From Clostridia bacterium (GTDB lineage Bacteria > Bacillota > Clostridia > TANB77 > CAG-508), in contig CAAECB010000034.1 of assembly GCA_900754285.1 (NCBI GenBank), forward strand, positions 3,458 through 67,457: a DNA stretch of 64,000 nucleotides, written 5' to 3'. Below the pieces are notes generated by a model that saw only the letters and a program-made list of their open reading frames with translations, was not told where the DNA came from and made no database searches. How positions within the stretch are numbered: the first letter of the stretch is position 1; the number at the start of each line of letters is the position of its first letter. Below, piece by piece: positions 5,931 to 50,962 of the stretch. The position numbers were made by a program, and so were the translations under genes.

Positions 5931-5968
5931 AGTAATGTTTTTTGAGTCCAGCCCCAAAAACATCAATA
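5931..5968. repeat. Hairpin-repeat family copy 1 (stem ATGTTTTT/AAAAACAT, loop TGAGTCCAGCCCC)
   Basis: Inverted arms flank a 13-nt loop that is near-identical to the copies at 27920, 38450 and 50930. Confidence 0.7.
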
Positions 5969-6028
5969 AGAAAATTTAAACGTAAATAGGACCAAATCTA
6001 CTGCTTTCAATCTGGTCCTATTTTCAAC

Positions 6029-6298
6029 TTATTTGAGGTACAATAACTCACAAAGATATGGTATGGCTTGATATCTCTCTTTTGGTAAATAATAGCTTAA
6101 ATAATATTTTAAGTTACAAAAATCTTCATCACATTCATTAAAATTATTATTTTCAGCCCAAATATCCAAAGCTTTTGTTGAATTAATTTCAGTTGTTGCC
6201 ATCTTTGCTATGGCAAATTTCAAAACCTCTTTAAAATATTGCCATTTTCCCTTCTGTAGTCCTTCTACAAACAATTCCTTCATCATTCTTTCTGCCAT
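6029..6298 (-). CDS. Hypothetical protein (89 aa)
   Basis: ORF with an upstream AGAGAGG RBS-like sequence. No recognisable domain. Confidence 0.3.
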   Translation of the reverse strand: MAERMMKELFVEGLQKGKWQYFKEVLKFAIAKMATTEINSTKALDIWAENNNFNECDEDFCNLKYYLSYYLPKERYQAIPYLCELLYLK

Positions 6299-6323
6299 TT
6301 TTTATACCTCTCTTTCTTTTGTT

Positions 6324-6349
6324 TGACTCTTAAAATTATTTAAGAGTCA
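6324..6349. promoter_or_regulatory. Perfect palindrome TGACTCTTAAA-ATTA-TTTAAGAGTCA between the EndoQ-like gene end and the 89-aa ORF start (terminator or operator candidate)
   Basis: 11-bp arms are exactly complementary and there is no U-tract. Confidence 0.3.
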
Positions 6350-6469
6350 TAATATATCTGACTACAAATATATTATAACTCTTATTTTTGATATTGTCAA
6401 ATTCTGGTAATTTAGATAACATAATATAAAAATCACAGTAACAAACTACTAATGCTAATGCTTATCACT

Positions 6470-7705
6470 TTATTCTATTTTACCATAATTGCCTCCACCG
6501 CCTGCATGAACTATGCATTTACCTTTTCTAGCATCATCTATTTTATTAGCTATTTTTTCTCCTACCACCGCTTCTATATCATCTTTTGAAAGTTTGTGTA
6601 AAATATTCATTTCAGTTTCAAAAGTTTCTAAAAGTTTTTCTATTGTTTTACCTCCAACACCAGGCACAAAACCAAGTGGTACTTGATAAATATATTGAGG
6701 TCTGTTTGCTGGACTCTTACTTTCAGGCTTATCCTTTATTAATTCAATTCTATCAAAAACACCAAAAGTAACTTTATCACTATTGCAATATGGGCATTTG
6801 TCAACAGGTTCTTTTGTTTCTATTGTTTGCTCGCAATTATCACAATGTGTTCTATGGTATTTACCAAGTTTTGGATCTAATCCATAATTTGCTACAACTT
6901 TTCTACCATCTTCATTTTTTAATGCTTTTACAACTTCTTTAAAAGATATATCCTCAACTTGCATTTTATTATATTCTCTCGCTATTTTAGGTAATGAATG
7001 TGCATCTGAATTTGTAACAAAAGTCTTATTTTCTAATTCCGAAATCATATCTGCTAAATATGTATCAGAACTCAATCCTAATTCCACTGCAAAAATTTTA
7101 TCATATTTTTCCTTAAAAATGTCTTTCATTCTATCTGTACAATTTCCATAATAACTTTTAAATGGTGTAAATACATGTGCTGGAATCAATATTCCATTGT
7201 ATTTTTCTACAATATCTATTAAATCATATCCTGATAAATCTGAACGTTGTGTACTTAATGTTATATTTTTTATATGATGGCTCATTTCTTCGGAAAAGCC
7301 TTTTATATCCTTTAAATATGGAAAAAAGCAAACATTGTGTGCACTACCACATTTCCCGTTTCTACCTTTTTCAGAAGTTTCTACTTCACTTCCTAGTAAT
7401 ATACATACTTTATCTTTATAGATAATTCCACCATCTTTTAACTCATATGCATCCCCATTTTCCAAAAATTTTTCTATATCTTCTATTACATATGGTGAAG
7501 CACAATCTATTATTCCTACAACTTGTATTCCTTTTCTTGATTCACATTCTTTTGCTATATTAGCAAAATTTAAAGTTCTGGCTGCTGTTATTTTTATTGG
7601 CTTTCCTGATTCAGATCTTCCTATATGAACATGTAAATCTGCAAATATTTCATACATCTTACTCTCATTCCTCTCTAAAACTAATTTGAAAACTTCAAAA
7701 TTCAT
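6470..7705 (-). CDS. Endonuclease Q-like protein (TIGR00375-type; PHP-domain hydrolase with C-terminal zinc finger)
   Basis: N-terminus IFADLHVHIGRSESGKPIKITAARTLNFANIA...GIIDCASPYV matches the EndoQ/PHP signature. A CDNCEQ...CPYC zinc ribbon is present. Confidence 0.55.
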   Translation of the reverse strand: MNFEVFKLVLERNESKMYEIFADLHVHIGRSESGKPIKITAARTLNFANIAKECESRKGIQVVGIIDCASPYVIEDIEKFLENGDAYELKDGGIIYKDKVCILLGSEVETSEKGRNGKCGSAHNVCFFPYLKDIKGFSEEMSHHIKNITLSTQRSDLSGYDLIDIVEKYNGILIPAHVFTPFKSYYGNCTDRMKDIFKEKYDKIFAVELGLSSDTYLADMISELENKTFVTNSDAHSLPKIAREYNKMQVEDISFKEVVKALKNEDGRKVVANYGLDPKLGKYHRTHCDNCEQTIETKEPVDKCPYCNSDKVTFGVFDRIELIKDKPESKSPANRPQYIYQVPLGFVPGVGGKTIEKLLETFETEMNILHKLSKDDIEAVVGEKIANKIDDARKGKCIVHAGGGGNYGKIE

Positions 7706-7712
7706 TTACTTC

Positions 7713-8513
7713 CTAATTTTTTCTATTATCTACTAACTCTCCTATAACTTTTCTTGTTGTTTCTTCACTAAATAATGGTCTATTAGGATTTCCTACTTCT
7801 AATTTACTTAAATTTTTTCTAGCTTTAAAAAATTCTCCACATTGTTGTCTACATATTGCTTCATCAACTTTCATTTCATATTCATAAACAACTGCAGTGA
7901 TAAATTTTTTTACATCTTCTGCTTCTTTATAAGTATTTACTAACAAATTTAAAGGTGATATTTCTACTTTATCATTTACCTGAACCTTTTCCAATTTCTT
8001 AATAAAATCTACAAATACTTGCAAAAATTGATTATTAACATCTTTTAAATTTCTATACTCAAGTAATACTAAGGCTTCATCAACTTTCATTCCTATTCTT
8101 TCTGGTCTATCCAAAAGCATAGCACCAAATTGGTCTACTAATTCTAGTATATCACTTTCTTTAGCTCTATTTTTTTGAATTTTATATCTATTCATACCAG
8201 CACAAATATTACAAAACTCTTGTCCAAAACCAATTGTATACAAATAATCTGCACCCTCTTGTGCAAAAGCTTTTATTTTTTCTATATCATTTGCAACTTC
8301 AATTTTCTTACAACTTGCAAGTAATGATGCTGTTATTAATAAATTATGATCTACTTCTAAGTCTACATTATTTAAAAATAACCTCATTATCTCTGTTTTA
8401 AAAATTACTGATTTATCAAAAAATATATTTTCTTTTTTAGATAAATAATATGCTATCTCCATTTTAGAACCTGTATTTTTCTCATTTAATATATAATCTG
8501 CAAATGTCTCCAA
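7713..8513 (-). CDS. Hypothetical protein (266 aa) with two Cys pairs (CNICAG, CRQQCG), co-oriented and adjacent to the EndoQ-like gene
   Basis: ORF with an 8-bp gap to the downstream gene. No recognisable domain. Confidence 0.4.
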   Translation of the reverse strand: METFADYILNEKNTGSKMEIAYYLSKKENIFFDKSVIFKTEIMRLFLNNVDLEVDHNLLITASLLASCKKIEVANDIEKIKAFAQEGADYLYTIGFGQEFCNICAGMNRYKIQKNRAKESDILELVDQFGAMLLDRPERIGMKVDEALVLLEYRNLKDVNNQFLQVFVDFIKKLEKVQVNDKVEISPLNLLVNTYKEAEDVKKFITAVVYEYEMKVDEAICRQQCGEFFKARKNLSKLEVGNPNRPLFSEETTRKVIGELVDNRKN

Positions 8514-8618
8514 TCTTACTTCATCCCTTTCTTAAAATTCAAACACAGTTAGAAAAAAGTTAAATTTTATCAAAGCAAATTTTTAACAAAACTATAATCT
8601 TTTTCAACATTGTTCATT

Positions 8619-9062
8619 TTAGTTTAAATCTTTTATGGCATTTCTTGCCATCTCATCACAACGATTATTAAATTCATTATCACTATGTCCTTTAACCTTA
8701 ATAAATTTAATTTTATGCACTTTAGTCATTTGATATATTGCTTCCCAAATTTCTTTATTTTTAACTGGCTCTTTATTAGCTGTTTGCCAATTATTTTTTT
8801 GCCAATTATAAATCCAACCTTTATCAAAGCCATTTACCAAATAGGCACTATCACTATATAAATCAACTTCACAAGGAAATTTCAAAAGCTTTAATGCCTC
8901 TAAAGCTGCTGTTAATTCCATTACATTATTAGTTGTATCTTTTTTTCCTCCTGAAATCTCTTTTTTATTATCACCTGCCATTAAAATAGCTCCCCATCCA
9001 CCTGGACCAGGATTACCTGAGCAAGCTCCATCTGTATATATTACTACTTTTTGCATAATCAC
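8619..9062 (-). CDS. rnhA: Ribonuclease HI
   Basis: VVIYTDGACSGNPGPGGWGAIL... is the classic RNase H1 N-terminus, at 147 aa. Confidence 0.9.
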   Translation of the reverse strand: MIMQKVVIYTDGACSGNPGPGGWGAILMAGDNKKEISGGKKDTTNNVMELTAALEALKLLKFPCEVDLYSDSAYLVNGFDKGWIYNWQKNNWQTANKEPVKNKEIWEAIYQMTKVHKIKFIKVKGHSDNEFNNRCDEMARNAIKDLN

Positions 9063-9161
9063 AAACCTTTCTTTATAAGCAAATTAATTGTTTTTTTTCT
9101 TTTTATATGTTATCATTATAACAATAAAAAATAAATAAAACAATAGAGAGGACTAATATTT

Positions 9162-10412: not shown

Positions 10413-10489
10413 AAAGATTAGTATATATATTTTTTGAAATATGAAAATGTGAATGAAATAACTTTAGAAAATCTAAATTAATTTTTTGA

Positions 10490-10538
10490 AAAAGTTCACG
10501 TCGAATGGCATCAGCCATGAGGACTAAGATGAACTTTT
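10490..10538. terminator. Compound hairpin (AAAAGTTCA ... TGAACTTTT arms enclosing an inner ATGGC-ATCA-GCCAT palindrome) in the convergent tmcAL/hlyIII intergenic region
   Basis: Nested inverted repeats. The element is locally GC-richer than its flanks. Confidence 0.35.
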
Positions 10539-10622
10539 AACAAAAATTAAGATAGATTTTCTTAGTTATGTAATAAACCTTTGAATACGAAAAAAAATAT
10601 ATATACTAATCTTTTATATTTA

Positions 10623-11297: not shown

Positions 11298-11393
11298 AAA
11301 ATCAACTCCTAACGTAATAAATTATTTTCTTATATATAGATAGAGGGCATGTTAAAAAACATAACCCCCTATTCTTCATATGTAAATCTTAAA

Positions 11394-13985: not shown

Positions 13986-14155
13986 TTTATATATTCCTCC
14001 TTCGTAACTTCATCTATCGTTTTCACACATATATTATCTATTAAATTATTATATTTGTCAAACCTTTTTTTAATATTTTTCAAAAAATTAACACAGACAA
14101 TTTCTATGCATTGTTATTTCTAATACTCTAGAAAATCTAAAAAATTCCTAAAATA

Positions 14156-19003: not shown

Positions 19004-19078
19004 TGGTGACCCCTACGGGAATCGAACCCATGATTCCACCTTGAGAGGGTGGCGTCTTAGCCGCTTGACCAAGGGGCC
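19004..19078 (-). tRNA. tRNA-Glu (anticodon read as CUC; 3' CCA encoded)
   Basis: The reverse complement GGCCCCTTGGTCAAGCGGCTAAGACGCCACCCTCTCAAGGTGGAATCATGGGTTCGATTCCCGTAGGGGTCACCA folds as a cloverleaf. It resembles Bacillus tRNA-Glu. Confidence 0.8.
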
Positions 19079-19108
19079 ATAAATACTGTACACGCTGTGT
19101 ACTATGTA

Positions 19109-19137
19109 TTTATATCATGTTTTTATAAATTAGTCAA
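19109..19137 (-). promoter_or_regulatory. Putative sigma-A-type promoter for tRNA-Glu (-35 TTGACT, 17-bp spacer, -10 TATAAA), overlapping the mrnC stop
   Basis: Consensus-like hexamers with the right spacing about 30 nt upstream of the tRNA 5' end. Confidence 0.35.
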
Positions 19138-19528
19138 CACTAATCTTTAAAATTTCTTGTAATCTATCACTTTGTTCAGTTAAATATAAATATCCAAGAA
19201 GAGCCTCATATGCTGTAGCATACATATATTCTTGAACATTTGCATTTTTAGGCAAATGATGATTTTCAGCATTTCTACCTCTCCTTACCACATCTTTTTC
19301 TTCTTCTGTTAATTCATCATAAATACGTTTTAAAATTTCTGATTGAGCACCAGCTTTAACATATTTTATTGATTCAATATGTAATGCATGTGGTTTCATA
19401 TGTGTTTCATTTACCAATTTTGTTCTTATATATAATTCATATACACAATCACCAACATATGCCCATGTAAGTGGTGGCAATAATTTTACTTCTTGCATAC
19501 TACGCTTAATTTCTATAAATGATTCCAA
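19130..19528 (-). CDS. mrnC: Mini-ribonuclease 3
   Basis: LTWAYVGDCVYELYIR RNase-III-like signature, at 132 aa. Confidence 0.85.
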   Translation of the reverse strand: MESFIEIKRSMQEVKLLPPLTWAYVGDCVYELYIRTKLVNETHMKPHALHIESIKYVKAGAQSEILKRIYDELTEEEKDVVRRGRNAENHHLPKNANVQEYMYATAYEALLGYLYLTEQSDRLQEILKISVD

Positions 19529-19562
19529 TTTTTTTCCTCTTTTCTAAATAAATTGTATATTT

Positions 19563-20528
19563 TTAATTTTTACTATCTGCTTTTTCAATTGTAATTTTTC
19601 CTAATACTCCATTTTTAAATTCATCTAATAAGATTTTTGCTGTTTTTTCATCATCTATATTTCCACCTGAAATTATACACCCTCTTTTTCTTCCTATTTC
19701 TTGCATAATCTCATAAATGTTTTGATTTTCTGGTTGGAAATCTTGTCCCATAACTTCTTTTATGTATTCCTCTTTTAATTGATATCTTTGGCATATTTTT
19801 TCTGGATATTCTTCTAATAGATATTTTGTTAATTCATATGCTACTTCTATTCTATCTAATACATCTTCTTTTATAGAACCTGTAAACGCTAAATGCAACG
19901 CTACCTCATTGTTTTCAAATTTTGGCCATAATACACCTGGAGTATCTAATAATTCTACTTTTTCATTTATTCGTATCCATTGTTTTTGCTTTGTTACACC
20001 TGGTTTGTTCCCAACTCCTGCTAAAGTTCTTTTGCTTATTCTGTTTATAAAAGATGATTTTCCTACATTTGGTATTCCTAATATCATCGCTCTAATTTTT
20101 CTTCCTGTTCTTCCTTTTGAATCCATTTCTTCTTTTTTATCTTTCATGACCTCTTCTATTTTGCTTACTACTTGTCCTATTCCAGTTCCAGATTGCGAAT
20201 CTGTTAATACTGCTGGTATTCCTTTTTTTGCAAAATATGATAACCATCTTTGATTTTCTTTTTCTTCTGATAAATCACATTTGTTTAATATTACTATTTT
20301 TTTCTTTCCTTTTGTTATCTCCTCTATGTCTGGATTTCTACTTGCTATTGGTATCCTTGCATCTAATAATTCTATTACTATATCTATTAGTTTTAAGTCT
20401 TCTTTTATTTGCTTTCTTGTTTTCGCCATATGTCCTGGATACCAGTTAATTCCGACTGATGGAAAACTTTTTGTACTATCATCTTTTTTCTTTTCTGCTC
20501 TAATTTTTCTTTTTTGATACATATCCAT
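19563..20528 (-). CDS. rbgA: Ribosome biogenesis GTPase A (YlqF)
   Basis: Circularly permuted GTPase motifs (NKCDL, GIPNVGKSS, DTPG). Its first 87 bp are duplicated at 21589..21676. Confidence 0.85.
   Translation of the reverse strand: MDMYQKRKIRAEKKKDDSTKSFPSVGINWYPGHMAKTRKQIKEDLKLIDIVIELLDARIPIASRNPDIEEITKGKKKIVILNKCDLSEEKENQRWLSYFAKKGIPAVLTDSQSGTGIGQVVSKIEEVMKDKKEEMDSKGRTGRKIRAMILGIPNVGKSSFINRISKRTLAGVGNKPGVTKQKQWIRINEKVELLDTPGVLWPKFENNEVALHLAFTGSIKEDVLDRIEVAYELTKYLLEEYPEKICQRYQLKEEYIKEVMGQDFQPENQNIYEIMQEIGRKRGCIISGGNIDDEKTAKILLDEFKNGVLGKITIEKADSKN
20441..20527. repeat. 87-bp direct repeat copy A (5' end of rbgA; candidate att core)
   Basis: Identical except for 2 mismatches to 21589..21676. 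Confidence 0.85.
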
Positions 20529-20540
20529 TATTTATCACTT

Positions 20541-21586
20541 CCTTATTCATCACTATTATTTTCATTTAAATATTTATTATAAAATTCATCCATTGAAGAA
20601 ATATATTTTCGATCTTGTATAACTCTAAACTTTTCATACTCTTTTTCTGCTTTTTCTACTGCTTCTTTATGAGATATACTGCCACTATTATTTAATATTT
20701 TTTTCTTCTAAACTTTAATAAATCATCAGTTGCATCTATCCAATCCTTCATTGTCATTACATATCTTTGTTTTGCTTCATCCTCTGCAAATATCAAAAAT
20801 AAATTTGTTAAATTTTTTAGATTATTCATTTCTTCTTCGTTTAAATAATTTTTTGCAATAACTACATCATATTTATATATTAAACCATCAGGAGAATTTT
20901 TCCAATTAGTTAGTCCCACATGTTCTTTATCTGAGTTTGCTCTACTATATATTAATTCGGCAGCAGTAATGTCCACTTATAGCATAATGCAACTTATTTT
21001 GAACTATTTTAAAGAAGGTATAGGCGTCTTCTGATTTTGGATTGTAATCTGCTGCTGTTGCAATAAATAAATCAGTGATTTTTTGATATGCCATTCTTTC
21101 ACTTACTCTAATTGTTTTAATACGTTCTAATAATTCATCAAAATATTTTGCATCATATTTATTTCCACTTATAAAACGTTCGTCATTTAATGCAAAGCCC
21201 TTTGTCATATATTCTTTTAATATTTTTGTTGCCCATATTCTAAATTCTGTTGCTTTTTTAGAATTAATTCTATAACCCACAGCAATTATAGCATCTAAAC
21301 TATAAATAGTTGTGTTATAGTTTTTTCCGTCATCGGCAGTTAACGAGCATTTCTCGGTAACTGATTTTTTATCTAACTCATTATCTTCAAATATATGTTT
21401 CAAGTGTAAACTTATATTGTCTGTAGAACATTCAAAAACTTTTGACATTCCTTTTTGTGATAACCATAAAGTTTCATCTTTATAAATAGCATCTACTACA
21501 ATATTACCTGCACTATTTTTATATATAATTAATTTATTATCTTCCATCAATAATCTCCTTTCCTTTAGTTTTTCATGATTCCTCAC
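20541..21586 (-). pseudogene. RhuM-family (virulence protein RhuM / ORF6N-like) gene copy with at least two frameshifts
   Basis: ORFs 20945..21586 and 20692..20976 plus a third-frame C-terminus (..KFRVIQDRKYISSMDEF..) align colinearly to the intact paralog at 21712..22740. Confidence 0.65.
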
Positions 21587-21588
21587 TT

Positions 21589-21676
21589 ACCAGTTGATTC
21601 CGACTGATGGAAAACTTTTTGGACTATCATCTTTTTTCTTTTCTGCTCTAATTTTTCTTTTTTGATACATATCCAT
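21589..21676. repeat. 87-bp direct repeat copy B (truncated rbgA 5' fragment MDMYQKRKIRAEKKKDDSPKSFPSVGINW*)
   Basis: Near-identical to 20441..20527. Its reading frame stops immediately after the repeat. Confidence 0.85.
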
Positions 21677-21711
21677 ATTTTTCACTTTTTTTACAACTTG
21701 TAAGTTGTCGC

Positions 21712-22740
21712 TCAGTTGCTGTTAAGATTTTTTGTTTCTGTTACTAACTCATCAAAGTCTGAAATATAATTTTTGTCTTGTATAATTCTATATTTTTTGT
21801 ACTCATCTAAAGCCAATTTATCTGCTATTTCTCTTTTTATTTTGCCATTATCTTTTAAAATGTTATATTCATTTATTTTCAAAAATACTTCTAATTTTTC
21901 TTTCCACTCTTGCATTGAAATAATCTTACCTAGTTTTACTTGTCGTTCTGCATAATCAAGATACATCGATACTAAATTATTTAGCTCTATAATTTCTTCT
22001 TGTGAAAGATAGTTTTTAGCTATTGTTACATCTGTTTCAAGTATTTTTCCATCTGGTGCATTTTTCCAAGTTGTTAGTCCCATATTATCTTTTTTACTAT
22101 CTACTCTATTATAAATTATTTCAGGAGCAGTCATTCCAGTAATAGCAAAATGTAACTTGTTCTGAACATTTTTGTAAAATTCTTGTGTTGTTTCACTATT
22201 TTTATCATAATCATAGCTACATTCTTTGTATATATCAGTTATTTTTTGATAAAATCTTCTTTCACTTGCTCTAATTTCTTTTATCTTAACTAATAACTCA
22301 TCAAAGTAATCTTTTCCAAATTTAGGTCCATTTTTTAGCATTTCACTATTAACAATAAAACCTTTTTTTATGTATTCCTTCAATGTTTTGGTAGCCCAAA
22401 TTCTAAAATCTGTTGCTTCTTTTGAATTTACTCTATAACCAACTGCTATAATTGCATCTAAACTGTAAAAATTTGTGTTATATTTTTTTCCATCCGAAGC
22501 AGTTACTCTAATTTTTTGAGTAACTGAATCTTGATTTAATTCTTTTGTTTTAAAGATATTCTGTAAATGATATGTTATATTATTTTCTGCTACATTAAAT
22601 AATTTTGACATTGACTTTTGTGTTAACCAAAAATCTTCTTCATTATATAAAACTTCAACAGATATATTTTCGTTATTTTGGCTTTGATATATGATTAAAT
22701 CTTTTAAATTTTCTATATTATTCAATAATAAGCACCTCAC
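21712..22740 (-). CDS. RhuM-family virulence/anti-restriction-like protein (intact)
   Basis: WLTQKSMSKLF...LDAIIAVGYRVNSKEATDFRIWATKTLKEY is the RhuM/ORF6N signature. Confidence 0.8.
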   Translation of the reverse strand: MRCLLLNNIENLKDLIIYQSQNNENISVEVLYNEEDFWLTQKSMSKLFNVAENNITYHLQNIFKTKELNQDSVTQKIRVTASDGKKYNTNFYSLDAIIAVGYRVNSKEATDFRIWATKTLKEYIKKGFIVNSEMLKNGPKFGKDYFDELLVKIKEIRASERRFYQKITDIYKECSYDYDKNSETTQEFYKNVQNKLHFAITGMTAPEIIYNRVDSKKDNMGLTTWKNAPDGKILETDVTIAKNYLSQEEIIELNNLVSMYLDYAERQVKLGKIISMQEWKEKLEVFLKINEYNILKDNGKIKREIADKLALDEYKKYRIIQDKNYISDFDELVTETKNLNSN

Positions 22741-22810
22741 ATCTTTTTTTGAGAACTATTGTTTGTATTATATAATAAAATAATTACTATGTCAATATTT
22801 TTAGTTGATT

Positions 22811-23810
22811 TCACGTTATATATTTCCTATGTGAGTTTTTCACATTATTTTGATTTACCATTGCGTATTCCATCGTTGTATCTATTTTTATATGACCTAA
22901 TAACTTATGTACTTGTTCTATTGGCATCCCTTTATCAATAGCCATAGTCGCCATTGTTATTCTAAATTTATATGGATGTACTTTATTTATATTTGCTTTT
23001 TTTCCTAGATTTCTAATAGCAATCTCAATTCCTGATATTCCTAATCTGTTATATGGTTTTATTAATGATACAAATAATGCTTCATTATCATCTGTTCTAG
23101 TTTCCAAATATTTTTCTATATACATTTTGCTCTTTGCACTAAAATAAACTTCTCTTTCACTGTTTCCTTTATCCAAAACAATACAGCTTCTTTCTTGAAA
23201 ATTCATATCTGATATATTTAATCTCGTAATTTCTCCTACTCTCATACCAGTTGAAATTAATAGTTCTAATATTGCTAAATCCCTTACATTTGAACAAGTA
23301 TCTCTTAACTTTTCCAAATTTCCATCTGTTAATGTTTCTTTTACTCTTCTAGTAGTCTTTACTTTATGAATTCTTCTTACTGGACTTTTTACAATATAGT
23401 CCTCATTTTCCAACCAAGCAAAGAAACTTGATAAAGTTCTTCTCATATTATCTATCGTTACCATACCTGCATTTGAATTATTTTTATAATCTGCTAAATA
23501 GTTTCTTAATATTTCAGTAGTAATTTCATTTACTGGAAGATTGACAGCATCAAACATTTTATTTATATTATCTTTATAGTAATTTAAAGTTCTATTTGAG
23601 CAACCTTCAATTTCTTTAGATGATATAAATTTATTTTATATATTAGTATTATTCTTTAGTATTTCCTGTTTTTTAATTGGTTCTATCCTTTCAATTTGAT
23701 AATTTAAACATATTTCTGTAAGTATTTCTTTTAATTTTATTCTTTGGTTATTGTCTAAAAAATCTTCTGTTGTATCAATTACTTTTCCTACAAATAATTC
23801 TCTCATGACA
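22811..23810 (-). CDS. Tyrosine-type site-specific recombinase/integrase (phage integrase family), N-terminal region in a different frame (frameshift near 23620-23650 in an A/T run)
   Basis: Catalytic-domain ORF 22811..23557 (..HPYKFRITMATMAIDKG..LLGH...TMEY). The upstream frame encodes MRELFVGKVIDTTEDF...NKFISSKEIEGCSNRTLNYYKDNINK, contiguous with it. Confidence 0.7.
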
Positions 23811-27768: not shown

Positions 27769-27919
27769 TTTCTCCTTTCAAATTTATATTATATAATATT
27801 AATATCTACAAAATTAAAAATTCTATACTAATATCATTCATATCATAACCTATTTTTTACTTTTTTGCAACAATTCTGAAAAAAAACTTTAATTTTTTCA
27901 ATAATCCAAATGTACTACT

Positions 27920-27950
27920 GGTGTTTTTTGAGTCCGTCCCCAAAAACACC
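27920..27950. repeat. Hairpin-repeat family copy 2 (stem GGTGTTTTT/AAAAACACC, loop TGAGTCCGTCCCC)
   Basis: Perfect 9-bp stem with the conserved loop. It is followed by a partial copy at 27957..27978 (CAGTTCCCCAAAAACGTC) that overlaps the ruvX stop. Confidence 0.75.
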
Positions 27951-27957
27951 CAAAACA

Positions 27958-28371
27958 TCAGTTCCCCAAAAACGTCTCCAATATATAAACAGCAGAAATT
28001 GTATCAACAATTGCTCTTTTCTTCTTTTTGTTTACATCTAAAAAATTCATTGTTTTATGTGCTGCAACAGTTGTAAGCCTTTCATCAACAGTTACTATTT
28101 TTTTATCTGGATATTTGCATTTTAATTTATGTATAAATTTTTCTGTAACTTCTGCTCTTTCTGTTTTTGTTCCATTCATGTTATAAGGCATTCCAACAAC
28201 AATTGTTTCTACTGGATATTGCTCAAAAATTTCATCTAATCTGCGTAAAACTATTTTATCAGAATTATTACGTTGTATTGTTTCTAATCCTTGTGCTGTT
28301 ATATTTAAAGCATCTGTTATTGCAATTCCAACTCTTGCATCACCATAATCTATACTTAATATTCTACTCAT
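27958..28371 (-). CDS. ruvX: Holliday junction resolvase-like RuvX/YqgF
   Basis: [18 protein letters not shown]-terminus, at 137 aa. Confidence 0.9.
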
Positions 28372-37326: not shown

Positions 37327-37339
37327 GTTTTAATATGTG

Positions 37340-38335: not shown

Positions 38336-38413
38336 ACCCTTTCTACTGTATAAATTTCATAAGTTTTATTTCCATTCTAAAATCACAATTTATTTTTTCT
38401 AAAGACTTAATAA

Positions 38414-38438
38414 TTTTTGCTCCGTCCCCAAATCACTG
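38414..38438. repeat. Degenerate partial copy of the hairpin-repeat loop region (TTTTTGCTCCGTCCCCAAATCAC)
   Basis: Matches the TTTTTGAGTCCGTCCCCAAAAACAC core with small deletions and has no complementary arms. Confidence 0.5.
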
Positions 38439-38449
38439 CTTCAAAATAA

Positions 38450-38492
38450 TTAATGGGTGTTTTTTGAGTCCGTCCCCAAAAACACCCATTAA
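38450..38492. repeat. Hairpin-repeat family copy 3 (15-bp stem TTAATGGGTGTTTTT/AAAAACACCCATTAA, loop TGAGTCCGTCCCC)
   Basis: Perfect 15-bp inverted arms around the conserved loop. It lies between the folD stop and the dprA start. Confidence 0.8.
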
Positions 38493-38493
38493 A

Positions 38494-39363
38494 TTATTTT
38501 GATTGCTGTTTTGCAGCTTTTATTACATTATTTAAAAGCATAGCTATTGTCATAGGCCCTACTCCCCCTGGTACAGGCGTTATATAACTTGCTTTTTGTG
38601 ATACTTCTTCAAAGTCTACATCACCTACTATTTTTCCTGTTTTTAATCTATTTATTCCTACATCTATAACAACTACATCTTCTTTTACCATTTCAGCTTT
38701 AATAAATTCTGGTTTTCCTATTGCTGTTATTAATATATCCGCTTCTTTTGTTATTTTTTCTAATTCTTTTGTCTTTGAGTGGCACACTGTTACTGTTGCA
38801 TTTTTATTTATACAACATTGTATTAATGGCTTCCCTACAATATTGCTTCTTCCTAAAATCACAACATTTTTTCCACATAAGTCAATATTGTATTCTTCAA
38901 ATAACCTCATTATCCCATATGGTGTACATGATACAAATGTATCTTGCCCCAAAACTAATTTTCCTATATTCATTGGATGAAAGCCATCAACATCTTTTTT
39001 ATAATCTATCTTTTTTATTGCCTCATTTATATCTAAATTAGGTGGTAATGGACTTTGTAATAATATTCCATTAACTGTTTTATCATTGTTTAATTTTTCT
39101 ATTAATCTAGTTAATTCTTCTTGTTTTATATCTGCTCCTAATATATATTCTTCATATTTAACGCCAACTTCATCACATGCTTTGCTTTTATTTTTTATAT
39201 ATACTTTAGATGCTGCATTATCCCCAACCATTATTACTGATAATTTAGGATTTATACCATTTTCTTTTAGCTCTTCTACTTCCTTTTTTAAATATTCTCT
39301 TGTTTTCTTAGCAATTGCTTTTCCATCTATTATTACGGCCATAATTACATCCATTCCTTCCAA
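38494..39363 (-). CDS. folD: Bifunctional methylenetetrahydrofolate dehydrogenase/methenyl-THF cyclohydrolase
   Basis: Typical FolD N-terminus (IDGKAIAKK...), GRSNIVGKP and PGGVGPMTIAML motifs. Confidence 0.9.
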   Translation of the reverse strand: MEGMDVIMAVIIDGKAIAKKTREYLKKEVEELKENGINPKLSVIMVGDNAASKVYIKNKSKACDEVGVKYEEYILGADIKQEELTRLIEKLNNDKTVNGILLQSPLPPNLDINEAIKKIDYKKDVDGFHPMNIGKLVLGQDTFVSCTPYGIMRLFEEYNIDLCGKNVVILGRSNIVGKPLIQCCINKNATVTVCHSKTKELEKITKEADILITAIGKPEFIKAEMVKEDVVVIDVGINRLKTGKIVGDVDFEEVSQKASYITPVPGGVGPMTIAMLLNNVIKAAKQQSK

Positions 39364-39391
39364 ATTTGAACTATAATTAGTATCACATTTA

Positions 39392-40150: not shown

Positions 40151-40174
40151 AATAATTTTCTCCTTTCTTACTTT

Positions 40175-42784: not shown

Positions 42785-42804
42785 CCTTTCTCATTTTCAC
42801 ATAA

Positions 42805-43905
42805 TCAGAATTCATTTATTTCATATTTTCCTGTTTTTTCATTTAATTCTAAAACAACCTTAGATGACAAGCAAACAACTGGTCTAAATGCTACAGTTTT
42901 ACCATCATAATAATGATGACGAACTCTACCATAATAATATACAGCCATAATATTTTCGTTATGTACTGCAGATGGTGATGAAACCCAATAAGCATATGCT
43001 TTTTGATGTTGTGGATCATCTGCTACATATAATCTATTTGTATCTGTTGCAAAACTATCTGTCCATTTTTGCCAAGTTGTACCTCCATCTACACTTAATA
43101 AATATCCTGCATATCCACTTCCAGTTGCACCTTCACTATTCACATCAGTATTTTCTCCAGTTACAGTATATTTTAACTTATCTTTTACCTTTGGATGTGT
43201 TTGAATATAACTTTCATACAACATTTCTAAAGTTGGACCCCCTATTGCATAATTAGCATATCCTTTATTATCTTTATATATTTTCCATGCCTCTATATCT
43301 TGCATATATGCCACAACCTTATTATTACTATATTTCTTTTTTGCATTTGGTACTATTCCGTCAGGAAACATCTCAAAATACTTCTTATTCATGTTTTTCA
43401 AACTTTTTTCATAAATATTATTTGATAATATTCTATCCATTCCACTATATGAATTTACTACTTGCACAAAATTTGCTTTATATTCTGCACCATATGGACA
43501 TTGTGAATCTTCTCCTATAACTTTATTAGGCAATTTATCTGTAACACTTATAGTTCCATCTTCATTTTTTTCTATTGCATATGGTAATGCTGTATTTTTT
43601 ACATAACTATTTGCTATTAAATATATATTTTCATCATCAGCATAAAATATTTGCCATTTCACATCTTTATCAGCTTGAATTTCCTTGTTTTTTGCATCTT
43701 TTACAACATAGTTAGATACTTCTTTTCCATAAGTTATTATAGCATTTTCTTTTATTTGTTTCGCATTACCTTTTTTATTATCTTCCTCTTTTTCTCCTAT
43801 TATATGATCTAATTCATTTTTCCACATTTCTAAAATATTATTTTCAATTTCTATATATTTACTCTTTGCTTCTTTTGCTTTTTTCAAAATTCCATTATCA
43901 GACAT
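42805..43905 (-). CDS. Hypothetical secreted/surface protein (366 aa). A candidate N-terminal signal/TM segment is encoded in another frame just upstream (43906..44010).
   Basis: The ORF has no hydrophobic N-terminus. The upstream overlapping frame reads MRKKLKKENAITIPALIITIILLLILARS..., which suggests a frameshift at the 5' end. Confidence 0.4.
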   Translation of the reverse strand: MSDNGILKKAKEAKSKYIEIENNILEMWKNELDHIIGEKEEDNKKGNAKQIKENAIITYGKEVSNYVVKDAKNKEIQADKDVKWQIFYADDENIYLIANSYVKNTALPYAIEKNEDGTISVTDKLPNKVIGEDSQCPYGAEYKANFVQVVNSYSGMDRILSNNIYEKSLKNMNKKYFEMFPDGIVPNAKKKYSNNKVVAYMQDIEAWKIYKDNKGYANYAIGGPTLEMLYESYIQTHPKVKDKLKYTVTGENTDVNSEGATGSGYAGYLLSVDGGTTWQKWTDSFATDTNRLYVADDPQHQKAYAYWVSSPSAVHNENIMAVYYYGRVRHHYYDGKTVAFRPVVCLSSKVVLELNEKTGKYEINEF

Positions 43906-44022
43906 AAGTCCATCTATTGATACTCCGAGCTAATATTAATAATAAAATAATTGTTATTATTAATGCAGGTATAGTAATAGCATTTTCTTTTTTTAATTTT
44001 TTTCTCATAGTCACTCCTGAAA

Positions 44023-44295
44023 TTATTTTTCTTCATATACTCCAACTTTATACTCTACATCTTCCATATCAGGAAACATCTCCCTAACCCTCTTCAAAGT
44101 CAACATAGACATTCTAGGTTGAGCATTTTTAGAATTGTTAGACAGCAACTTCTGAGTATAACAATTTTGAGCTGTTTTAAACAACAAATATCTATTTCTA
44201 ACATAAGTATAATGAATTTCATATCCATTATTCAAATCTTCCCACATCATTTCAAATGTATAATTTTTATCCATATCTACATTCAATCCCTTCAA
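44023..44295 (-). CDS. Hypothetical protein (90 aa)
   Basis: ORF only. Confidence 0.3.
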   Translation of the reverse strand: MKGLNVDMDKNYTFEMMWEDLNNGYEIHYTYVRNRYLLFKTAQNCYTQKLLSNNSKNAQPRMSMLTLKRVREMFPDMEDVEYKVGVYEEK

Positions 44296-44298
44296 TAA

Positions 44299-45108
44299 CT
44301 ATACTATAATATCTGTATCCAATGAAATAGGTTGTTCTTGTTCATTTTCACTAGAATATTCTTGTTTTTTCAAAAATTCAACAGAATTCTGTCTCTGCTT
44401 TTCTAAACTTGGAACACCGACATGCAAAGATTCTATAAAATCTTTTTCGCCGTTATTTTCGTTCTCTTCTTTAGTAATTGTACTCTGTTGAAATGCATCA
44501 TATTTTTCTAAAACTTTATCCAACAAGTTTTTATCAGATTGTTCCAAGCACTCAAATATCTCCTGTTCTTCCTTAGAAGATTGAATTTTAGCAATTAATT
44601 GTTTAATCTCAATTATTTGAGAATAAATAGTCTCATCTGAATAACCTCTCTGTTCCAACATATTTGATGCTCTACTAGAAACATCTCTAATATAATCAGA
44701 AAAATTTCCTATTATTTTATCTGTTATTGTAACATTTTTTCCAGTCACAATTTGATGAAATTCATCAATATCTTTTTGTTTATTATCTGATATTCCTTCT
44801 TCAATACTTTGTTCCATTTTTCTACATTTATGAATTATTTCACTAGCAATGTCATCTTTTTTATCATCTTGTAATTTTCCCAACATATTTTCAACATAAG
44901 TAAAGTTCAAATCTATATACTCAAAAACATTTTCAGGATTAGAATTATATCTAGCAACTATATCTTTAAGAACATTACAATAACTCTGTAATTTTTGTTT
45001 TATCTCCTCTGGCATTTCTGAAAATTCTATTAAACTTAATATATCTTTTTTCATATCTTCTAATAAATTAATTTTATTCATATAATCTTTCTTCCTTTCA
45101 AAAAACAT
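44299..45108 (-). CDS. Hypothetical acidic protein (269 aa)
   Basis: ORF only. There is a 3-nt gap to the downstream ORF. Confidence 0.35.
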   Translation of the reverse strand: MFFERKKDYMNKINLLEDMKKDILSLIEFSEMPEEIKQKLQSYCNVLKDIVARYNSNPENVFEYIDLNFTYVENMLGKLQDDKKDDIASEIIHKCRKMEQSIEEGISDNKQKDIDEFHQIVTGKNVTITDKIIGNFSDYIRDVSSRASNMLEQRGYSDETIYSQIIEIKQLIAKIQSSKEEQEIFECLEQSDKNLLDKVLEKYDAFQQSTITKEENENNGEKDFIESLHVGVPSLEKQRQNSVEFLKKQEYSSENEQEQPISLDTDIIV

Positions 45109-45246
45109 AACATTATATAATATTACTCATTAAATATCATTTAAGAACAAAAGCGGAAATTAATAACATTAACACTTGTTTAGGACATTTTCAGGTCTGT
45201 ATTTTTGTTTGCATATAAAATTTGCTTTGCAAATTTCTGTACATTA

Positions 45247-47262
<2,016 letters not shown>

Positions 47263-47453
47263 TTATTTATACTTATTTTCCTTTTTAGTATACCCATATT
47301 CTACTATATATAAAAAAAAATAGCAATGATTATCACATTATTTTTTTCGACATTTTTTGCTGTTTGTATCTCTAGTGGATACCAATATTTTCCATAATTG
47401 TTTAAAATATATGGTATATGAATAATCTATAGATTAAAAAGGAGATTTGTTAA

Positions 47454-47729
47454 ATGTATCAATGTACAAAATATAATAATCAATTAAATGTAACAGGAAA
47501 AAAAATTAAAGAATTACGTGTAAAAAACAACCTTTCATTATCTGGTTTATCAACAAAATTAGCATTAATGGGAATCGACATTTCTAAACCTTCACTTCAT
47601 AAACTAGAAACTGGTCATCGTATCTTAAAAGATTACGAATTATTTGGTATATCTATGGTATTTAAAGTTCCTATAGAAGATTTTATTTCAGATTTTATGG
47701 ATAATTTAAAAAAAGAAAATATTGTCTAA
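47454..47729 (+). CDS. XRE-family helix-turn-helix transcriptional regulator
   Basis: IKELRVKNNLSLSGLSTKLALMGIDISKPSLHKLETG is an HTH_XRE pattern. Confidence 0.6.
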   Translation: MYQCTKYNNQLNVTGKKIKELRVKNNLSLSGLSTKLALMGIDISKPSLHKLETGHRILKDYELFGISMVFKVPIEDFISDFMDNLKKENIV

Positions 47730-47756
47730 CTAGGAAGTTCAGAAAACTTTTCTAAA

Positions 47757-47812
47757 AAAATTAAAGGGTAGTATTAAGAATTTACTAATTCTTAATACTA
47801 CCCTTTAATTTT
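47757..47812. terminator. Long perfect palindrome (AAATTAAAGGGTAGTATTAAGAATT..AATTCTTAATACTACCCTTTAATTT) acting as a bidirectional terminator between convergent genes
   Basis: About 25-bp arms flanked by A-run and T-run. Confidence 0.65.
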
Positions 47813-47813
47813 T

Positions 47814-48521
47814 TTAATCATCTTGTCTTGCTAAGATTATCAATCTTCTATCATTACTTGCATCTGTACAAGTTGACAATGTAAGTTCTGCTTTTCCATT
47901 TGTTTCTCTTTGATAAAAAGATGTATCTTGGTCATTTGTTTCAAATTTATTATAAATTGTATATGAAATTCTAGTTCCTCTATAATCTTTTACATTAATT
48001 TTATCTCCAACTTTTAATTTTTTATTGTTTGAGAAAAATGCACCATTACGATAATTATGCCCTATTATTACTGTATTTCCAGGTTGATTTATTGATTCAC
48101 CACCTGATGGATATAGAACTGCTACAGAATTTTCTATAGCTGATTTACTTACAGAATCAATTATTGGATATGAGAAATTAATTGCTGGTATTTCCATTGT
48201 TCCAACTGTTGTAAATCCTTTAAAATTACCTTTTGTTGCAGTCTTTGTTGTTGAAGAACCATTGCTTGTTGAATTAAGTGAACTTGCTATTTCATTTATC
48301 TTATCTCCAGCTGAATTTGTATCTTCTTGTTGTTCGTCTCCATCACTTGAAGAAGTTCCTTCATTATAATTATCAACAAACTCAGATGCTTCTTTTACTT
48401 TTTTATTTTTATCATAAACTTGATATCCTAAAAATCCTAATAATCCTACAATAGCTATAACTACAATAACTAAAATAACAGTTAAAGTTTTACCGTATTT
48501 ACTATCAAACATAACTATCAC
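47814..48521 (-). CDS. Sortase-family transpeptidase (TLxTC active site)
   Basis: N-terminal TM, His in VIIGHNY, and catalytic Cys in ELTLSTCTD. Confidence 0.7.
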   Translation of the reverse strand: MIVMFDSKYGKTLTVILVIVVIAIVGLLGFLGYQVYDKNKKVKEASEFVDNYNEGTSSSDGDEQQEDTNSAGDKINEIASSLNSTSNGSSTTKTATKGNFKGFTTVGTMEIPAINFSYPIIDSVSKSAIENSVAVLYPSGGESINQPGNTVIIGHNYRNGAFFSNNKKLKVGDKINVKDYRGTRISYTIYNKFETNDQDTSFYQRETNGKAELTLSTCTDASNDRRLIILARQDD

Positions 48522-48618
48522 ATTCCTTTCTCAGGCATATAACCTTTGTTTATTTTTTGCATTTGTTCATAAAACTCTACTTTAATTATAACATACAAAA
48601 ATACAAGTTTCAATTAAT

Positions 48619-48972
48619 TTATATAATTTTTTCACCTAGTTTTTTTCCTGCTAATACATGGAAATGCAAATGAGCTACTTCTTGTCCACCATTTTCTCCA
48701 CAATTATTTATTACTCTATAACCCTCTTCTGCAAAGCCTTGTTCTTTAGCAATATTTTTTATAGTAAACATTATTTTACTAATTAAATTTTCATCTACAC
48801 TTTCTATTTCATTTAATGATTTAATATGTTTTTTAGGTATTACTAAAATATGAATTGGAGCTGCTGGTTGAATATCTCTAAAAGCTAAAACATCATCATC
48901 TTCATATACCTTATTTGAAGGAATTTCTCCTTTAACAATTTTACAAAAAACACAATCTTCCATATTAAACAA
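48619..48972 (-). CDS. HIT-family (histidine triad) hydrolase
   Basis: HLHFHVL histidine-triad motif, at 117 aa. Confidence 0.85.
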   Translation of the reverse strand: MFNMEDCVFCKIVKGEIPSNKVYEDDDVLAFRDIQPAAPIHILVIPKKHIKSLNEIESVDENLISKIMFTIKNIAKEQGFAEEGYRVINNCGENGGQEVAHLHFHVLAGKKLGEKII

Positions 48973-48992
48973 TTCCTTTCCACAGCAATATT

Positions 48993-50753
48993 TTATTCTT
49001 TTATCAAAACTGCCTTGATTCTACGAATACCAGAAGAACTAGACTCTTCTTTTTTAATTTTGAATCTTCCCATATCGCCTGTATGTGTTACATGAGGTCC
49101 ACCACAAATTTCTTTGCTAAAGTCACCTATTGTATAAACCTTTACTTTATCACCATATTTATCTGTAAATAACCCTATTGCACCAGATTTTTTAGCATCT
49201 TCATAACTCATTTCTTCACAAGTTACTGGCAAATCTCTTTTAATTTGTTCATTAACCAAATCTTCCACTTGTTGTATTTCTTCTTTAGTCATTTTTTGAG
49301 GATGTGTAAAGTCAAAACGTAATCTCTCCTCTGTAATATTTGAACCACTTTGTTTTACATGCTCACCCAAAACAGTTCTTAATGCTTGATGTAATAAATG
49401 AGTTGCTGTATGATATGCTATTGTTTTTTCATTTTGATCTGCTAATCCACCTTTAAATTTTTGTTCTGAACCTAATCTTGATTTTTCTTGATGTTCCTTA
49501 AATAATTTATTAAATTCCTCTAAATCAATTTCTATATTATTTTCTTTAGCTAGTTCTTGTGTCATTTCTGGTGGAAAACCATAGGTATCATATAAACGAA
49601 AAACAATTTTTCCATCTATTTTATTATTACCATTTTGCTTAGCATAATTCATAGCTTTAGCAAATTCTTTTTCTCCATGTGATAATGTTTTTACAAATTT
49701 ATCTTTTTCTTCTAATATTACATTTTTAATTGTTTCTCTATTCTTTTCTAAATCTGGATACATTTCCTTTAAATTGTCAACATTTATATCTATTAATGTT
49801 GATAACTCGTCCAAATTAATTTCAAGTTTATTCATATGGCGAATCATTCTTCTAATTAATCTTCTTAAAACATATCCTCTATCAATATTGCTTGGTCTAC
49901 CGCCATCACAAATAATCATCATACTAGAGCGTAAATGTTCTGCAATAATTCTTCTACTTTCTATAATATCTTTTTGTTGTAATTCTTCTAATTTTTGCAT
50001 AATTGGAGCAAATATTTCTGTGTCAAAAGGAGTTTCTTTTCCTTGTAATAACATTGTCATTCTTTCCAAACCTAAACCTGTATCAACATTTTTTTGTTCT
50101 AGTTTTGAATAATTACCTTTGCTATCTTTAAAATATTCCATAAAAACATTATTCCATATTTCTACATATTTTCCACAATCACATGATGGTTGGCAATCAT
50201 CTGAACATGCTGGTTTGCCTGTATCATAAAACATTTCTGTGTCAGGTCCACATGGTCCTTCTTCTCCTGCTATCCACCAGTTATCATCTTTTCCATAGAA
50301 ATATATATGGTCTTTTGCTATTCCTGCTTTTTCCCAACATGATGCTGATATTTCATCTCTTGAACAATCTTCATCTCCTGCAAAACATGTAACAGATAAT
50401 TTTTCTACTGGTATTCCTAATTCTTTAGTTAAAAATTCAAAACTCATTTGTATAGATTCCTCTTTAAAATAGTCTCCTAATGACCAGTTTCCTAACATTT
50501 CAAAATATGTCAAATGACGATTGTCTCCTACTTCGTCTATGTCATTTGTTCTTACACATTTTTGATAATCTGTTAGTCTTGTTCCTGCTGGATGCTTTTC
50601 CCCTAACAAATATGGTACTAATGGTTGCATTCCTGCTGTTGTGAATAATACTGATGGGTCATTTTCTGGTATTAATGGTGCTGATGGTATTACTGCATGT
50701 CCATGTTCTTTAAAAAAGTTTAAATATTTTTTTCTTATATCTATTGCTTTCAT
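48993..50753 (-). CDS. alaS: Alanine--tRNA ligase, compact form (catalytic, shortened tRNA-recognition and editing domains; no C-Ala/DHHA1-like C-terminal domain)
   Basis: FTTAGMQPLVPYLLG and FEMLGNWSLGDYFK class-II motifs. Editing-domain HxxxH (HTATHLLH) and CGGPHV are present. The protein ends about 20 aa after the editing core at 586 aa, against about 870 aa typical. Confidence 0.7.
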   Translation of the reverse strand: MKAIDIRKKYLNFFKEHGHAVIPSAPLIPENDPSVLFTTAGMQPLVPYLLGEKHPAGTRLTDYQKCVRTNDIDEVGDNRHLTYFEMLGNWSLGDYFKEESIQMSFEFLTKELGIPVEKLSVTCFAGDEDCSRDEISASCWEKAGIAKDHIYFYGKDDNWWIAGEEGPCGPDTEMFYDTGKPACSDDCQPSCDCGKYVEIWNNVFMEYFKDSKGNYSKLEQKNVDTGLGLERMTMLLQGKETPFDTEIFAPIMQKLEELQQKDIIESRRIIAEHLRSSMMIICDGGRPSNIDRGYVLRRLIRRMIRHMNKLEINLDELSTLIDINVDNLKEMYPDLEKNRETIKNVILEEKDKFVKTLSHGEKEFAKAMNYAKQNGNNKIDGKIVFRLYDTYGFPPEMTQELAKENNIEIDLEEFNKLFKEHQEKSRLGSEQKFKGGLADQNEKTIAYHTATHLLHQALRTVLGEHVKQSGSNITEERLRFDFTHPQKMTKEEIQQVEDLVNEQIKRDLPVTCEEMSYEDAKKSGAIGLFTDKYGDKVKVYTIGDFSKEICGGPHVTHTGDMGRFKIKKEESSSSGIRRIKAVLIKE

Positions 50754-50929
50754 TTATTTTTCTTCCTTTCTTTTTTGCTCTCTTAAAATTTTCTTTTTCA
50801 ATTATACTCTAAAAAGTCTGTATTTGTCAATGATTTTGAAAAGTTAAAAATACTTAATCAGAAACATTACTACATGTTTTTCTAACTAAGTATTTTGTAT
50901 TATATATTTATTTAGTTTCATATTTTAAC

Positions 50930-50962
50930 TGATGTTTTTTGAGTCCGTCCCCAAAAACATCA
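50930..50962. repeat. Hairpin-repeat family copy 4 (stem TGATGTTTTT/AAAAACATCA, loop TGAGTCCGTCCCC)
   Basis: Perfect 10-bp stem around the conserved loop. It abuts the gap stop codon. Confidence 0.8.

Follow-up and report, generated by a model that had tools for sequence, protein, structure and literature searches.

Repetitive extragenic palindromes (REPs) and their associated tyrosine transposases (RAYTs) have been studied almost entirely in Proteobacteria, where the repeats are G/C-rich hairpins with a GTAG foot. RAYT genes are described as single-copy and vertically inherited (PMC5581495), and the HUH motif together with a catalytic tyrosine in Y---NP is the signature of the class 2 Y1 HUH proteins (PMC6006769). 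Within the TnpA-REP-like class 2, the largest subclass, and the second largest among all Y1 proteins, is subclass 2.1, the TIRYTs, for which the literature describes loosely defined terminal inverted repeats. These are long proteins with a C-terminal extension resembling a helix-turn-helix (HTH), found in many phyla, Clostridia included (PMC6006769), and their genes are flanked by inverted repeats sharing GGGGWSAS (GGGG[AT][CG]A[CG]) (PMC3733652, PMC6006769). Quentin et al. (2018, PMC6006769) searched beside the genes of this subclass without finding REP-like secondary structures. Here we describe a family of short hairpins with four full copies in a 64,000-nt stretch of a Clostridia bacterium assembly (contig CAAECB010000034.1, positions 3,458 to 67,457; hereafter the window, to which all coordinates refer unless another contig is named). 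A RAYT gene lies between inverted copies of the hairpin in 10 of 10 related loci, and we consider it likely that the hairpins are REP-like, nonautonomous single-stranded DNA elements that owe their maintenance, and probably their spread, to a domesticated RAYT of the TIRYT type, which is present in a single copy and inherited vertically. This is a known kind of element, REP/RAYT, in an unusual form, and not a new kind of system.

The hairpin family: core, stem, and distribution

The window has a GC content of 27.5% and uses the standard code, with translation table 11 giving a compact map whose genes are nearly all on the minus strand. The Mollicute code (table 4), prompted by the low GC content, was dropped given this compact map, in which ruvX ends before the hairpin. 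On the plus strand, the motif TGAGTCCGTCCCC occurs exactly at 27929, 38465, and 50940, and a variant with two changes, TGAGTCCAGCCCC, occurs at 5943. These are the only four matches in the window with up to two mismatches, compared with 0.01 expected from shuffles of the window, and the 22-mer TTTTTGAGTCCGTCCCCAAAAA, which includes the T and A runs, recovers the same four sites (0.00 expected). Read in gene orientation, the copies take the form (R)TGTTTTT-GGGGACGGACTCA-AAAAACA(Y), with the hairpin on the minus strand. A covariance model built from 96 distinct family members (R1) identifies just the same four sites, each on the minus strand, with scores of 41.7 to 57.2 bits; its runner-up in the window, at 22 bits, is the reverse strand of one of the four. 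In DNA and RNA folding, all four copies are more stable than shuffled sequences (z of -2.6 to -8.7). The four hairpins named in a preliminary description of the window are thus real and nonrandom. Their stems, read directly from the sequence, are perfect over 8, 9, 15, and 10 bp in copies 1 to 4, and the compensatory stem pair reported earlier is there as well, as A-T in copies 1 and 4 and as G-C in copies 2 and 3.

A scan of species-representative genomes with the pattern TTTTGGGGNNGGACTCAAAA matched at least 87 eight-kb blocks. Among the matches listed, uncultured Clostridia/Eubacteriales metagenome-assembled genomes (MAGs) from human, chicken, and sheep gut dominate, and at least 21 species-level Clostridia MAGs carry the pattern. 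The MAG of a sister species, CAKPOI, with 80 to 92% nucleotide identity to the window, holds at least 40 exact and at least 78 loose-core copies in 215 kb. Single matches outside the Clostridia, in unrelated phyla, number about 14 among those listed, in line with the roughly 17 that we estimate to arise by chance for an 18-base pattern over 1.2e12 positions; viral contigs gave one match to the motif, which is also at chance level. An Anaerolinea MAG, from an unrelated phylum, has a tandem unit of about 65 nt (L086, 1044-1130) that contains the 16-mer GGGGACGGACTCAAAA twice and could be chance or a different element. The Gap protein of the window is encoded only on metagenome contigs, one of which, ERZ1304717 NODE_797, matches the window over 21 kb with 100% identity. 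Comparison with Rfam, proposed in the preliminary description, reached no known RNA family at the hairpins: only tRNAs pass the gathering score in the window, and a permissive E-value search returned sub-threshold generic microRNA-precursor hairpins. The core sequence appears in the searchable literature only as an unrelated short hairpin RNA oligonucleotide.

Across the family, the stem changes in a compensatory manner around a G-rich core that is nearly fixed. The window's genus has stems of the type RTGYTTTT...AAAARCAY; in a group further removed, the stem is (A)nGGGATTTT...AAAATCCC(T)n around an unchanged core, GGGGACGGACTC, so that RTGYTTTT in one group stands against GGGATTTT in the other. 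In an ungapped alignment of the 96 distinct copies, 84.1% of the cells are paired, compared with 73.0% after column shuffling (none of 500 shuffles was as high), and the covariation score is 0.290, compared with 0.125 for shuffled columns, with all slid registers far lower. At pair 7:33, 50 copies have U-A and 37 have G-C, and at pair 9:31, 36 have A-U, 21 have U-A, and 13 have C-G; G-U pairs are tolerated in the stems. Selection on structure, which had been proposed from the four window copies, is therefore supported at the level of the family.

Across the family, the 13-nt loop varies, contrary to the preliminary description. Core positions 5 and 6 are AC in 75 copies, CC in 17, and TC in 3, with others that include CT, and sister subfamilies have GCA, GGA, or GAC in place of CTC in the 3' portion of the core. 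Both RNAfold and DNA folding pair GGG with CUC at the apex, leaving a hexaloop. As a conserved feature, this apical pairing was rejected: it never varies within the subfamily and is missing in the sister subfamilies GGGGACGGAGGA and GGGGTCGGAGAC. Because the GGG/CUC pairs have no covariation support, we treat the apex as a sequence motif and not as a proven mini-helix. A second short repeat, TTGGGGACGTTTCTGTTTGGGACATT, recurs in sister-clade MAGs (L045, L057, L069, L082, and L090), often beside hairpin copies, and may constitute a separate repeat family with the same GGGGACG start.

The RAYT gene flanked by hairpins

On contig 20 of CAKPOI (locus L031), inverted copies at 6147-6178 (+) and 7127-7158 (-) bracket a 247-aa open reading frame (ORF) at 6252-6995 (-). 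Its product reaches the NCBIfam model REP_Tyr_transpos (NF047646) at 80.9 bits (cutoff, 80) and Pfam Y1_Tnp at an E value of 6.5e-14, and it scores 25.2 bits against the NCBIfam IS200 model (NF033573), under the cutoff of 55. A profile of 31 homologues has one match in the PDB, 4ER8, which is E. coli TnpA-REP bound to REP (E=2.5e-6); a single-sequence phmmer search of the PDB gave spurious kinase matches, and the profile was needed to reach 4ER8. For an AlphaFold (AF2) model of one homologue, P0005 (pLDDT 89), the top Foldseek match is 4ER8_A (E=3e-7, TM 0.72), followed by IS608 and ISDra2 TnpA. The HxH and Y---NP residues (H63, H65, Y123, N127, and P128) are invariant in the 31 homologues and in a set of 40. 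The P0005 model ends in an all-helical C-terminal extension, approximately residues 145 to 247, which in some members has matches to HTH families (HTH_26, HTH_11, and HTH_24), all of them sub-threshold.

A tblastn search of the fetched loci with the L031 protein identified homologues with 38 to 50% identity in four sister-clade loci that had been chosen by DNA motif alone, and each of these four directly adjoins hairpin copies. Further RAYT loci were reached through protein homologues (P0004, 75% identity; P0005, 69%; P0010, 57%; P0038, 51%; and P0086, 48%). In all 10 related loci (L031, L083, L088, L093, L021, L095, L099, L103, L105, and L107; RAYT identity, 38 to 100%), a sense copy lies upstream (+) and an inverted copy downstream (-) of the RAYT gene. 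This bracketing is what supports the REP/RAYT reading, and the suggestion of a REP/RAYT-type element in the preliminary description gains further from the multi-copy, intergenic, 3'-end-biased nature of the family. In loci with a more divergent RAYT, the stem is different, as is the 3' portion of the core, and TTTTGGGGNCGGA in an A/T stem is kept. The gene order ABC-F ATPase, RAYT, (DUF975), Tex holds over 51 to 100% RAYT identity with no adjacent tnpB, which resembles the single-copy, vertically inherited behavior described for RAYTs.

To place the protein among described RAYTs, we used the published RAYT/TIRYT alignment (Di Nocera et al. 2013, PMC3733652, Additional file 5). In BLASTP, the L031 protein matched nine TIRYTs at E values of 2e-21 to 3e-32 (27 to 40% identity), compared with only 1.7e-4 to 6e-10 for four GTAG-REP RAYTs. 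By this measure, the associated RAYT falls with the TIRYTs (subclass 2.1 of Quentin et al., group 1 of Bertels et al.), to which it is much closer than to the GTAG-REP RAYTs. The hairpin core resembles the TIRYT flank motif GGGGWSAS as well, with GGGGACGG and GGGGTCGG agreeing at 7 of 8 positions and the occasional GGGGACAG at 8 of 8; motif position 7 is usually G here, not the consensus A. Six plasmid TIRYT homologues were checked, of which four (Iodobacter, Rhodospirillum, Pseudomonas, and Sporomusa) have the motif, as GGGG[AT][CG]AG, on both sides and one has it upstream only. In the four plasmid loci (L110-L113), GGGGTCAG or GGGGACAG lies about 50 to 80 nt upstream (+) and downstream (-) of the gene, in the same polarity as at the Clostridia loci, and the motif does not occupy the tip of an A/T stem. 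In the E. coli protein, W94, Q95, E100, and H101 make the contacts to GTAG (PMC6006769); these residues align to F, R, S, and E here, by positions hand-counted in the alignment of the profile with 4ER8, and these changes fit the missing GTAG foot.

Two further observations concern the gene. In L107, two different Y1_Tnp genes (1-59 and 5001-5744) lie 5 kb apart on one Clostridia contig, and some relatives therefore carry several RAYT paralogues. The contigs that encode P0005 (L099-L101) are all shorter than 2 kb and end in the flanking repeats, which suggests that the repeats break short-read assemblies.

In the mechanism that we propose, the RAYT, as the putative binder, would bind the hairpin folded on single-stranded DNA and read the apical GGGGWCGGA, which is probably its recognition site. 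The core would be fixed, and the stem would merely have to pair, because the protein would read the apical motif. The RAYT would cut and rejoin near the core, spreading or homogenizing copies, and copies would persist mainly just past stop codons, where their position would be harmless. Transcribed copies may act secondarily as 3' mRNA hairpins that stabilize or end transcripts, and the sister-clade copies, with a T tract behind them, could act as terminators. A more specific proposal, which we put forward tentatively and would not yet favor over its negation, is that an A/T-stem hairpin with an apical GGGGWCGGA is the natural minimal substrate of TIRYT-type RAYTs, recognized through its loop at the apex and not, as with GTAG, at its foot, and that in these Clostridia the host has co-opted copies behind stop codons as mRNA hairpins or terminators. 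If so, this clade supplies a defined protein/DNA pair for working out the orphan TIRYT subclass.

Individual copies, arrays, and strain variation

All four window copies lie 3' of minus-strand genes, as had been claimed, and they start 66 nt after the stop codon of an 89-aa ORF (6029-6298), 7 nt after that of ruvX (27958-27960), 1 nt after that of folD (38494-38496), and 3 nt after that of gap (50966-50968), under code 11. Copy 1 (5930-5968, minus strand) has the variant core GGGGCTGGACTCA in an 8-bp stem, ATGTTTTT/AAAAACAT, and scores 41.7 bits with R1 (E=2.5e-6), with a DNA fold of -5.6 kcal/mol (z=-3.65). The core GGGGACGGACTCA is shared by the other three. Copy 2 (27916-27954, minus strand; 9-bp stem GGTGTTTTT/AAAAACACC; R1, 51.8 bits) is identical in sequence in another metagenome contig of the same species. 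Copy 3 (38441-38502, minus strand; R1, 57.2 bits) extends its 15-bp perfect stem to 24 bp with one bulge, so that the outer stem covers the folD stop codon; it folds at -20.3 kcal/mol as DNA (z=-8.65) and at -30.1 kcal/mol as RNA (z=-8.2). Copy 4 (50927-50965, minus strand; 10-bp stem TGATGTTTTT/AAAAACATCA; R1, 53.1 bits) occupies a site that is polymorphic among strains (L001-L006 compared).

Both of the degenerate partial copies reported earlier exist. The unit at 27957-27975 (minus strand), ACGTTTTTGGGGAACTGA, overlaps the end of ruvX and gives its last codons (T-F-L-G-N) and stop codon. The unit at 38410-38436 (minus strand), 48 nt downstream of copy 3 in direct orientation, is a copy with a decayed stem, GTGATTTGGGGACGGAGCAAAAATTAT (GGGGACGGAGCAAAA), of a sister subfamily, the one that also flanks the RAYT paralogue P0005 in L099-L101.

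In CAKPOI and its relatives, units are repeated directly in tandem, most often with a period of 31 nt (14 of 36 neighbor pairs), and there are truncated units of 15 to 23 nt that have no right arm. Direct neighbor pairs number 36 and inverted pairs 13, all of the latter with '+-' polarity, and there are many singlets. A nested-insertion model for the truncated arrays was rejected, there being no stacked right arms behind them. Because truncated units have their junctions at several places (after CGG, after the core plus A, and after AAA), slippage or unequal exchange is just as likely an origin as site-specific joining, and we claim no cleavage site.

The window sites differ among relatives and strains in several ways. 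In CAKPOI, ruvX reads straight into a full copy, unlike in the window, and at folD an extra unit is inserted inside the sister-subfamily copy. At the gap site, strain L003 has an extra degenerate unit of 45 nt, and strain L004 (11009-13850, corresponding to approximately 50830-50965 of the window) has a duplicated left arm followed by a 2.7-kb island of three genes that replaces about 100 bp of intergenic sequence. The island, directly 3' of the gap hairpin, carries an 88-aa ORF, an HTH_3 regulator of 104 aa, and a protein of 569 aa that matches no family; none of its genes matches a transposase, integrase, or defense family.

Elsewhere in the window, approximately 43025-45232 is a strain-variable region: it is missing from strains L003 and L006, and its ORFs at 42805-43929 and 44299-45126 have no Pfam match. 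A tRNA-Glu gene, two RhuM-family ORFs, one of them truncated, and a Phage_integrase-family ORF (22811-23635) follow one another at 19004-23635, which looks like the remnant of an integrated element. A ComM/YifB-type Mg-chelatase-like gene at 999-2541 (minus strand) is split into two overlapping ORFs in different frames, with 1636-2541 covering Mg_chelatase profile positions 1-99 and 999-1718 covering positions 97-206; the split reflects a frameshift, a pseudogene, or an assembly error.

Alternative readings and comparison with known systems

The family has the broad properties of REPs: the unit is a palindrome of 29 to 39 nt, it occurs in many copies, and almost all of these (110 of 117) are intergenic. 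TTGGGG lies a median of 14 nt past the upstream stop codon, compared with 126 nt to the next gene. A sense ORF of at least 90 codons ends near 85 of 118 copies; of these 85, 59 have the stop codon no more than 20 nt from the core, and for 12 of the 59 it falls inside the element. Copies faced by the 3' end of only one gene are sense to it in 58 cases and antisense in 14.

Several points weigh against a REP/RAYT origin. Transposition alone does not predict the 80% sense bias or the tight proximity to stop codons, which could reflect an RNA-level function or a replication-strand bias; the two biases are inseparable here because gene strand and GC skew are collinear at these loci. The score against REP_Tyr_transpos is barely over its cutoff. 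A RAYT gene, which the preliminary description proposed to look for elsewhere in the genome, was found beside hairpins in related genomes; in the 64-kb window itself, tblastn found no homologue, and none of the 120 closest RAYT clusters lies on the 1-Mb contig of the window's species, ERZ28751309:contig_9377. A cognate RAYT in this genome is therefore an assumption. In form, too, the hairpins depart from typical REPs. There is no conserved GT[AG]G foot in the 96 copies, whose alignment is conserved at the T run and the apical core; the stems are A/T-rich, and singlets and direct tandems outnumber REPIN doublets. Finally, we saw no clean filled-versus-empty site polymorphism, the ruvX site being unchanged in the one other contig that was read (22 further contigs were collapsed as similar).

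The strongest competitor, though an unlikely one, is a host RNA element: a 3' untranslated-region hairpin acting as stabilizer, terminator, or translation-coupled regulator, its G-rich loop read by an RNA-binding protein or an RNA, with the RAYT incidental. The sense bias (58:14), the start of the hairpin a few nucleotides past the stop codon, and the tolerance of G-U pairs in the stems speak for it. Liang, Rudd and Deutscher (2015) reportedly found that, in E. coli, a REP lying up to about 15 nt from a stop codon reduces translation by stalling ribosomes. In the sister clade, the stem AAAAAGGGATTTT/AAAATCCCTTTTT has an A tract before it and a T tract after it, and this hairpin looks like a bidirectional intrinsic terminator. 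The window copies do not: they have an A/T-rich stem and no T run on their 3' side, and a terminator scan does not call them, so that the earlier contrast with classical terminators stands for the window and fails for the sister clade. An ordinary terminator of this genome can be seen at 47761-47808, where a perfect palindrome of 20 bp flanked on either side by T runs, a canonical bidirectional terminator, lies between convergent sortase and HTH genes. A host RNA element would also leave unexplained the RAYT bracketing in 10 of 10 loci at 38 to 100% identity and the match of the core to the TIRYT flank motif; no Rfam family corresponds to it, and truncated tandem arrays and copies inside ORF ends look like selfish proliferation. 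As a secondary, co-opted role, REP-like elements may have an RNA-level function.

More improbable still is that the hairpins are the ends, or miniature derivatives (like miniature inverted-repeat or palindrome-associated transposable elements), of an autonomous IS200/IS605-family insertion sequence. The protein does have the Y1_Tnp fold, with IS608 and ISDra2 TnpA as next-best structural matches, some plasmid TIRYT genes are multi-copy (one is found in three places on a single P. aeruginosa plasmid), and L107 has its two Y1 genes 5 kb apart. Yet it is the REP-transposase model and not the IS200 model (25 bits against a cutoff of 55) that is reached, the gene keeps one syntenic chromosomal position over 51 to 100% identity with no tnpB beside it, its flanks are the same hairpin inverted and not distinct left and right ends, and hairpin copies are far more numerous than the gene.

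We give the least credence to a signal at the DNA level that has no link to transposition (an uptake sequence, for example, or a polar motif for chromosome organization or protein binding) and happens to sit in palindromes, as Neisseria uptake sequences often sit in terminator-like inverted repeats: the 9- to 12-nt core is conserved across genera and its strong strand bias is collinear with GC skew, but the core is almost never inside genes, its density is low (about 1 copy per 3 to 16 kb even in blocks with matches), the stem covariation shows that the folded single strand matters, and the RAYT association would go unexplained.

If the hairpins are REP-like elements of a TIRYT-type RAYT, the TIRYT group gains a compact, abundant, and structurally constrained repeat from Firmicutes, with a candidate recognition motif and covariation data across genera. 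Annotators of gut Clostridia MAGs should recognize these repeats in any case, because they break assemblies, overlap or create the 3' ends of genes (ruvX), and mark strain variation (gap).

Among known structures, intrinsic terminators share with the family a hairpin directly past the stop codon and, in the sister-clade copies, an A tract before and a T tract after it. The window copies have an A/T stem without a T tract, unlike terminators, and a sequence-conserved apex of 12 to 13 nt is no terminator feature. IS200/IS605 elements share the HUH/Y1 catalytic fold and, presumably, the recognition of a single-stranded hairpin, whereas the Clostridia gene is single-copy, syntenic, and without TnpB, has identical inverted flanks, and does not reach the IS200 model. 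The proteobacterial REP/REPIN-RAYT systems (E. coli REPs and bacterial interspersed mosaic elements with TnpA-REP, and Pseudomonas REPINs) are closer. There, too, short multi-copy extragenic palindromes lie mostly downstream of genes, sometimes overlap ORF ends, and are clustered in tandem or inverted order; an HUH/Y1 gene, present once and inherited vertically, lies between inverted copies (a REPtron), and each paralogue has its own repeat subfamily. The Clostridia hairpins differ in having no 5' GT[AG]G foot and a conserved determinant that is apical, in stems that are A/T-rich instead of G/C-rich, and in the prevalence of singlets and direct tandems over REPIN doublets.

The closest likeness is to the TIRtrons (PMC3733652, PMC6006769). 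The Clostridia protein is closest to TIRYTs and has a helical C-terminal extension, its gene lies between inverted G-rich motifs (GGGGACGG, GGGGTCGG, or GGGGACAG) in the polarity of the plasmid TIRYT loci, and the flanking repeat is also a dispersed family with dimers and clusters. What sets the present family apart from TIRtrons is its host, an uncultured clade of gut Clostridia, and the setting of the motif, which here stands at the apex of a short A/T-stem hairpin that covaries between genera and lies right after stop codons.

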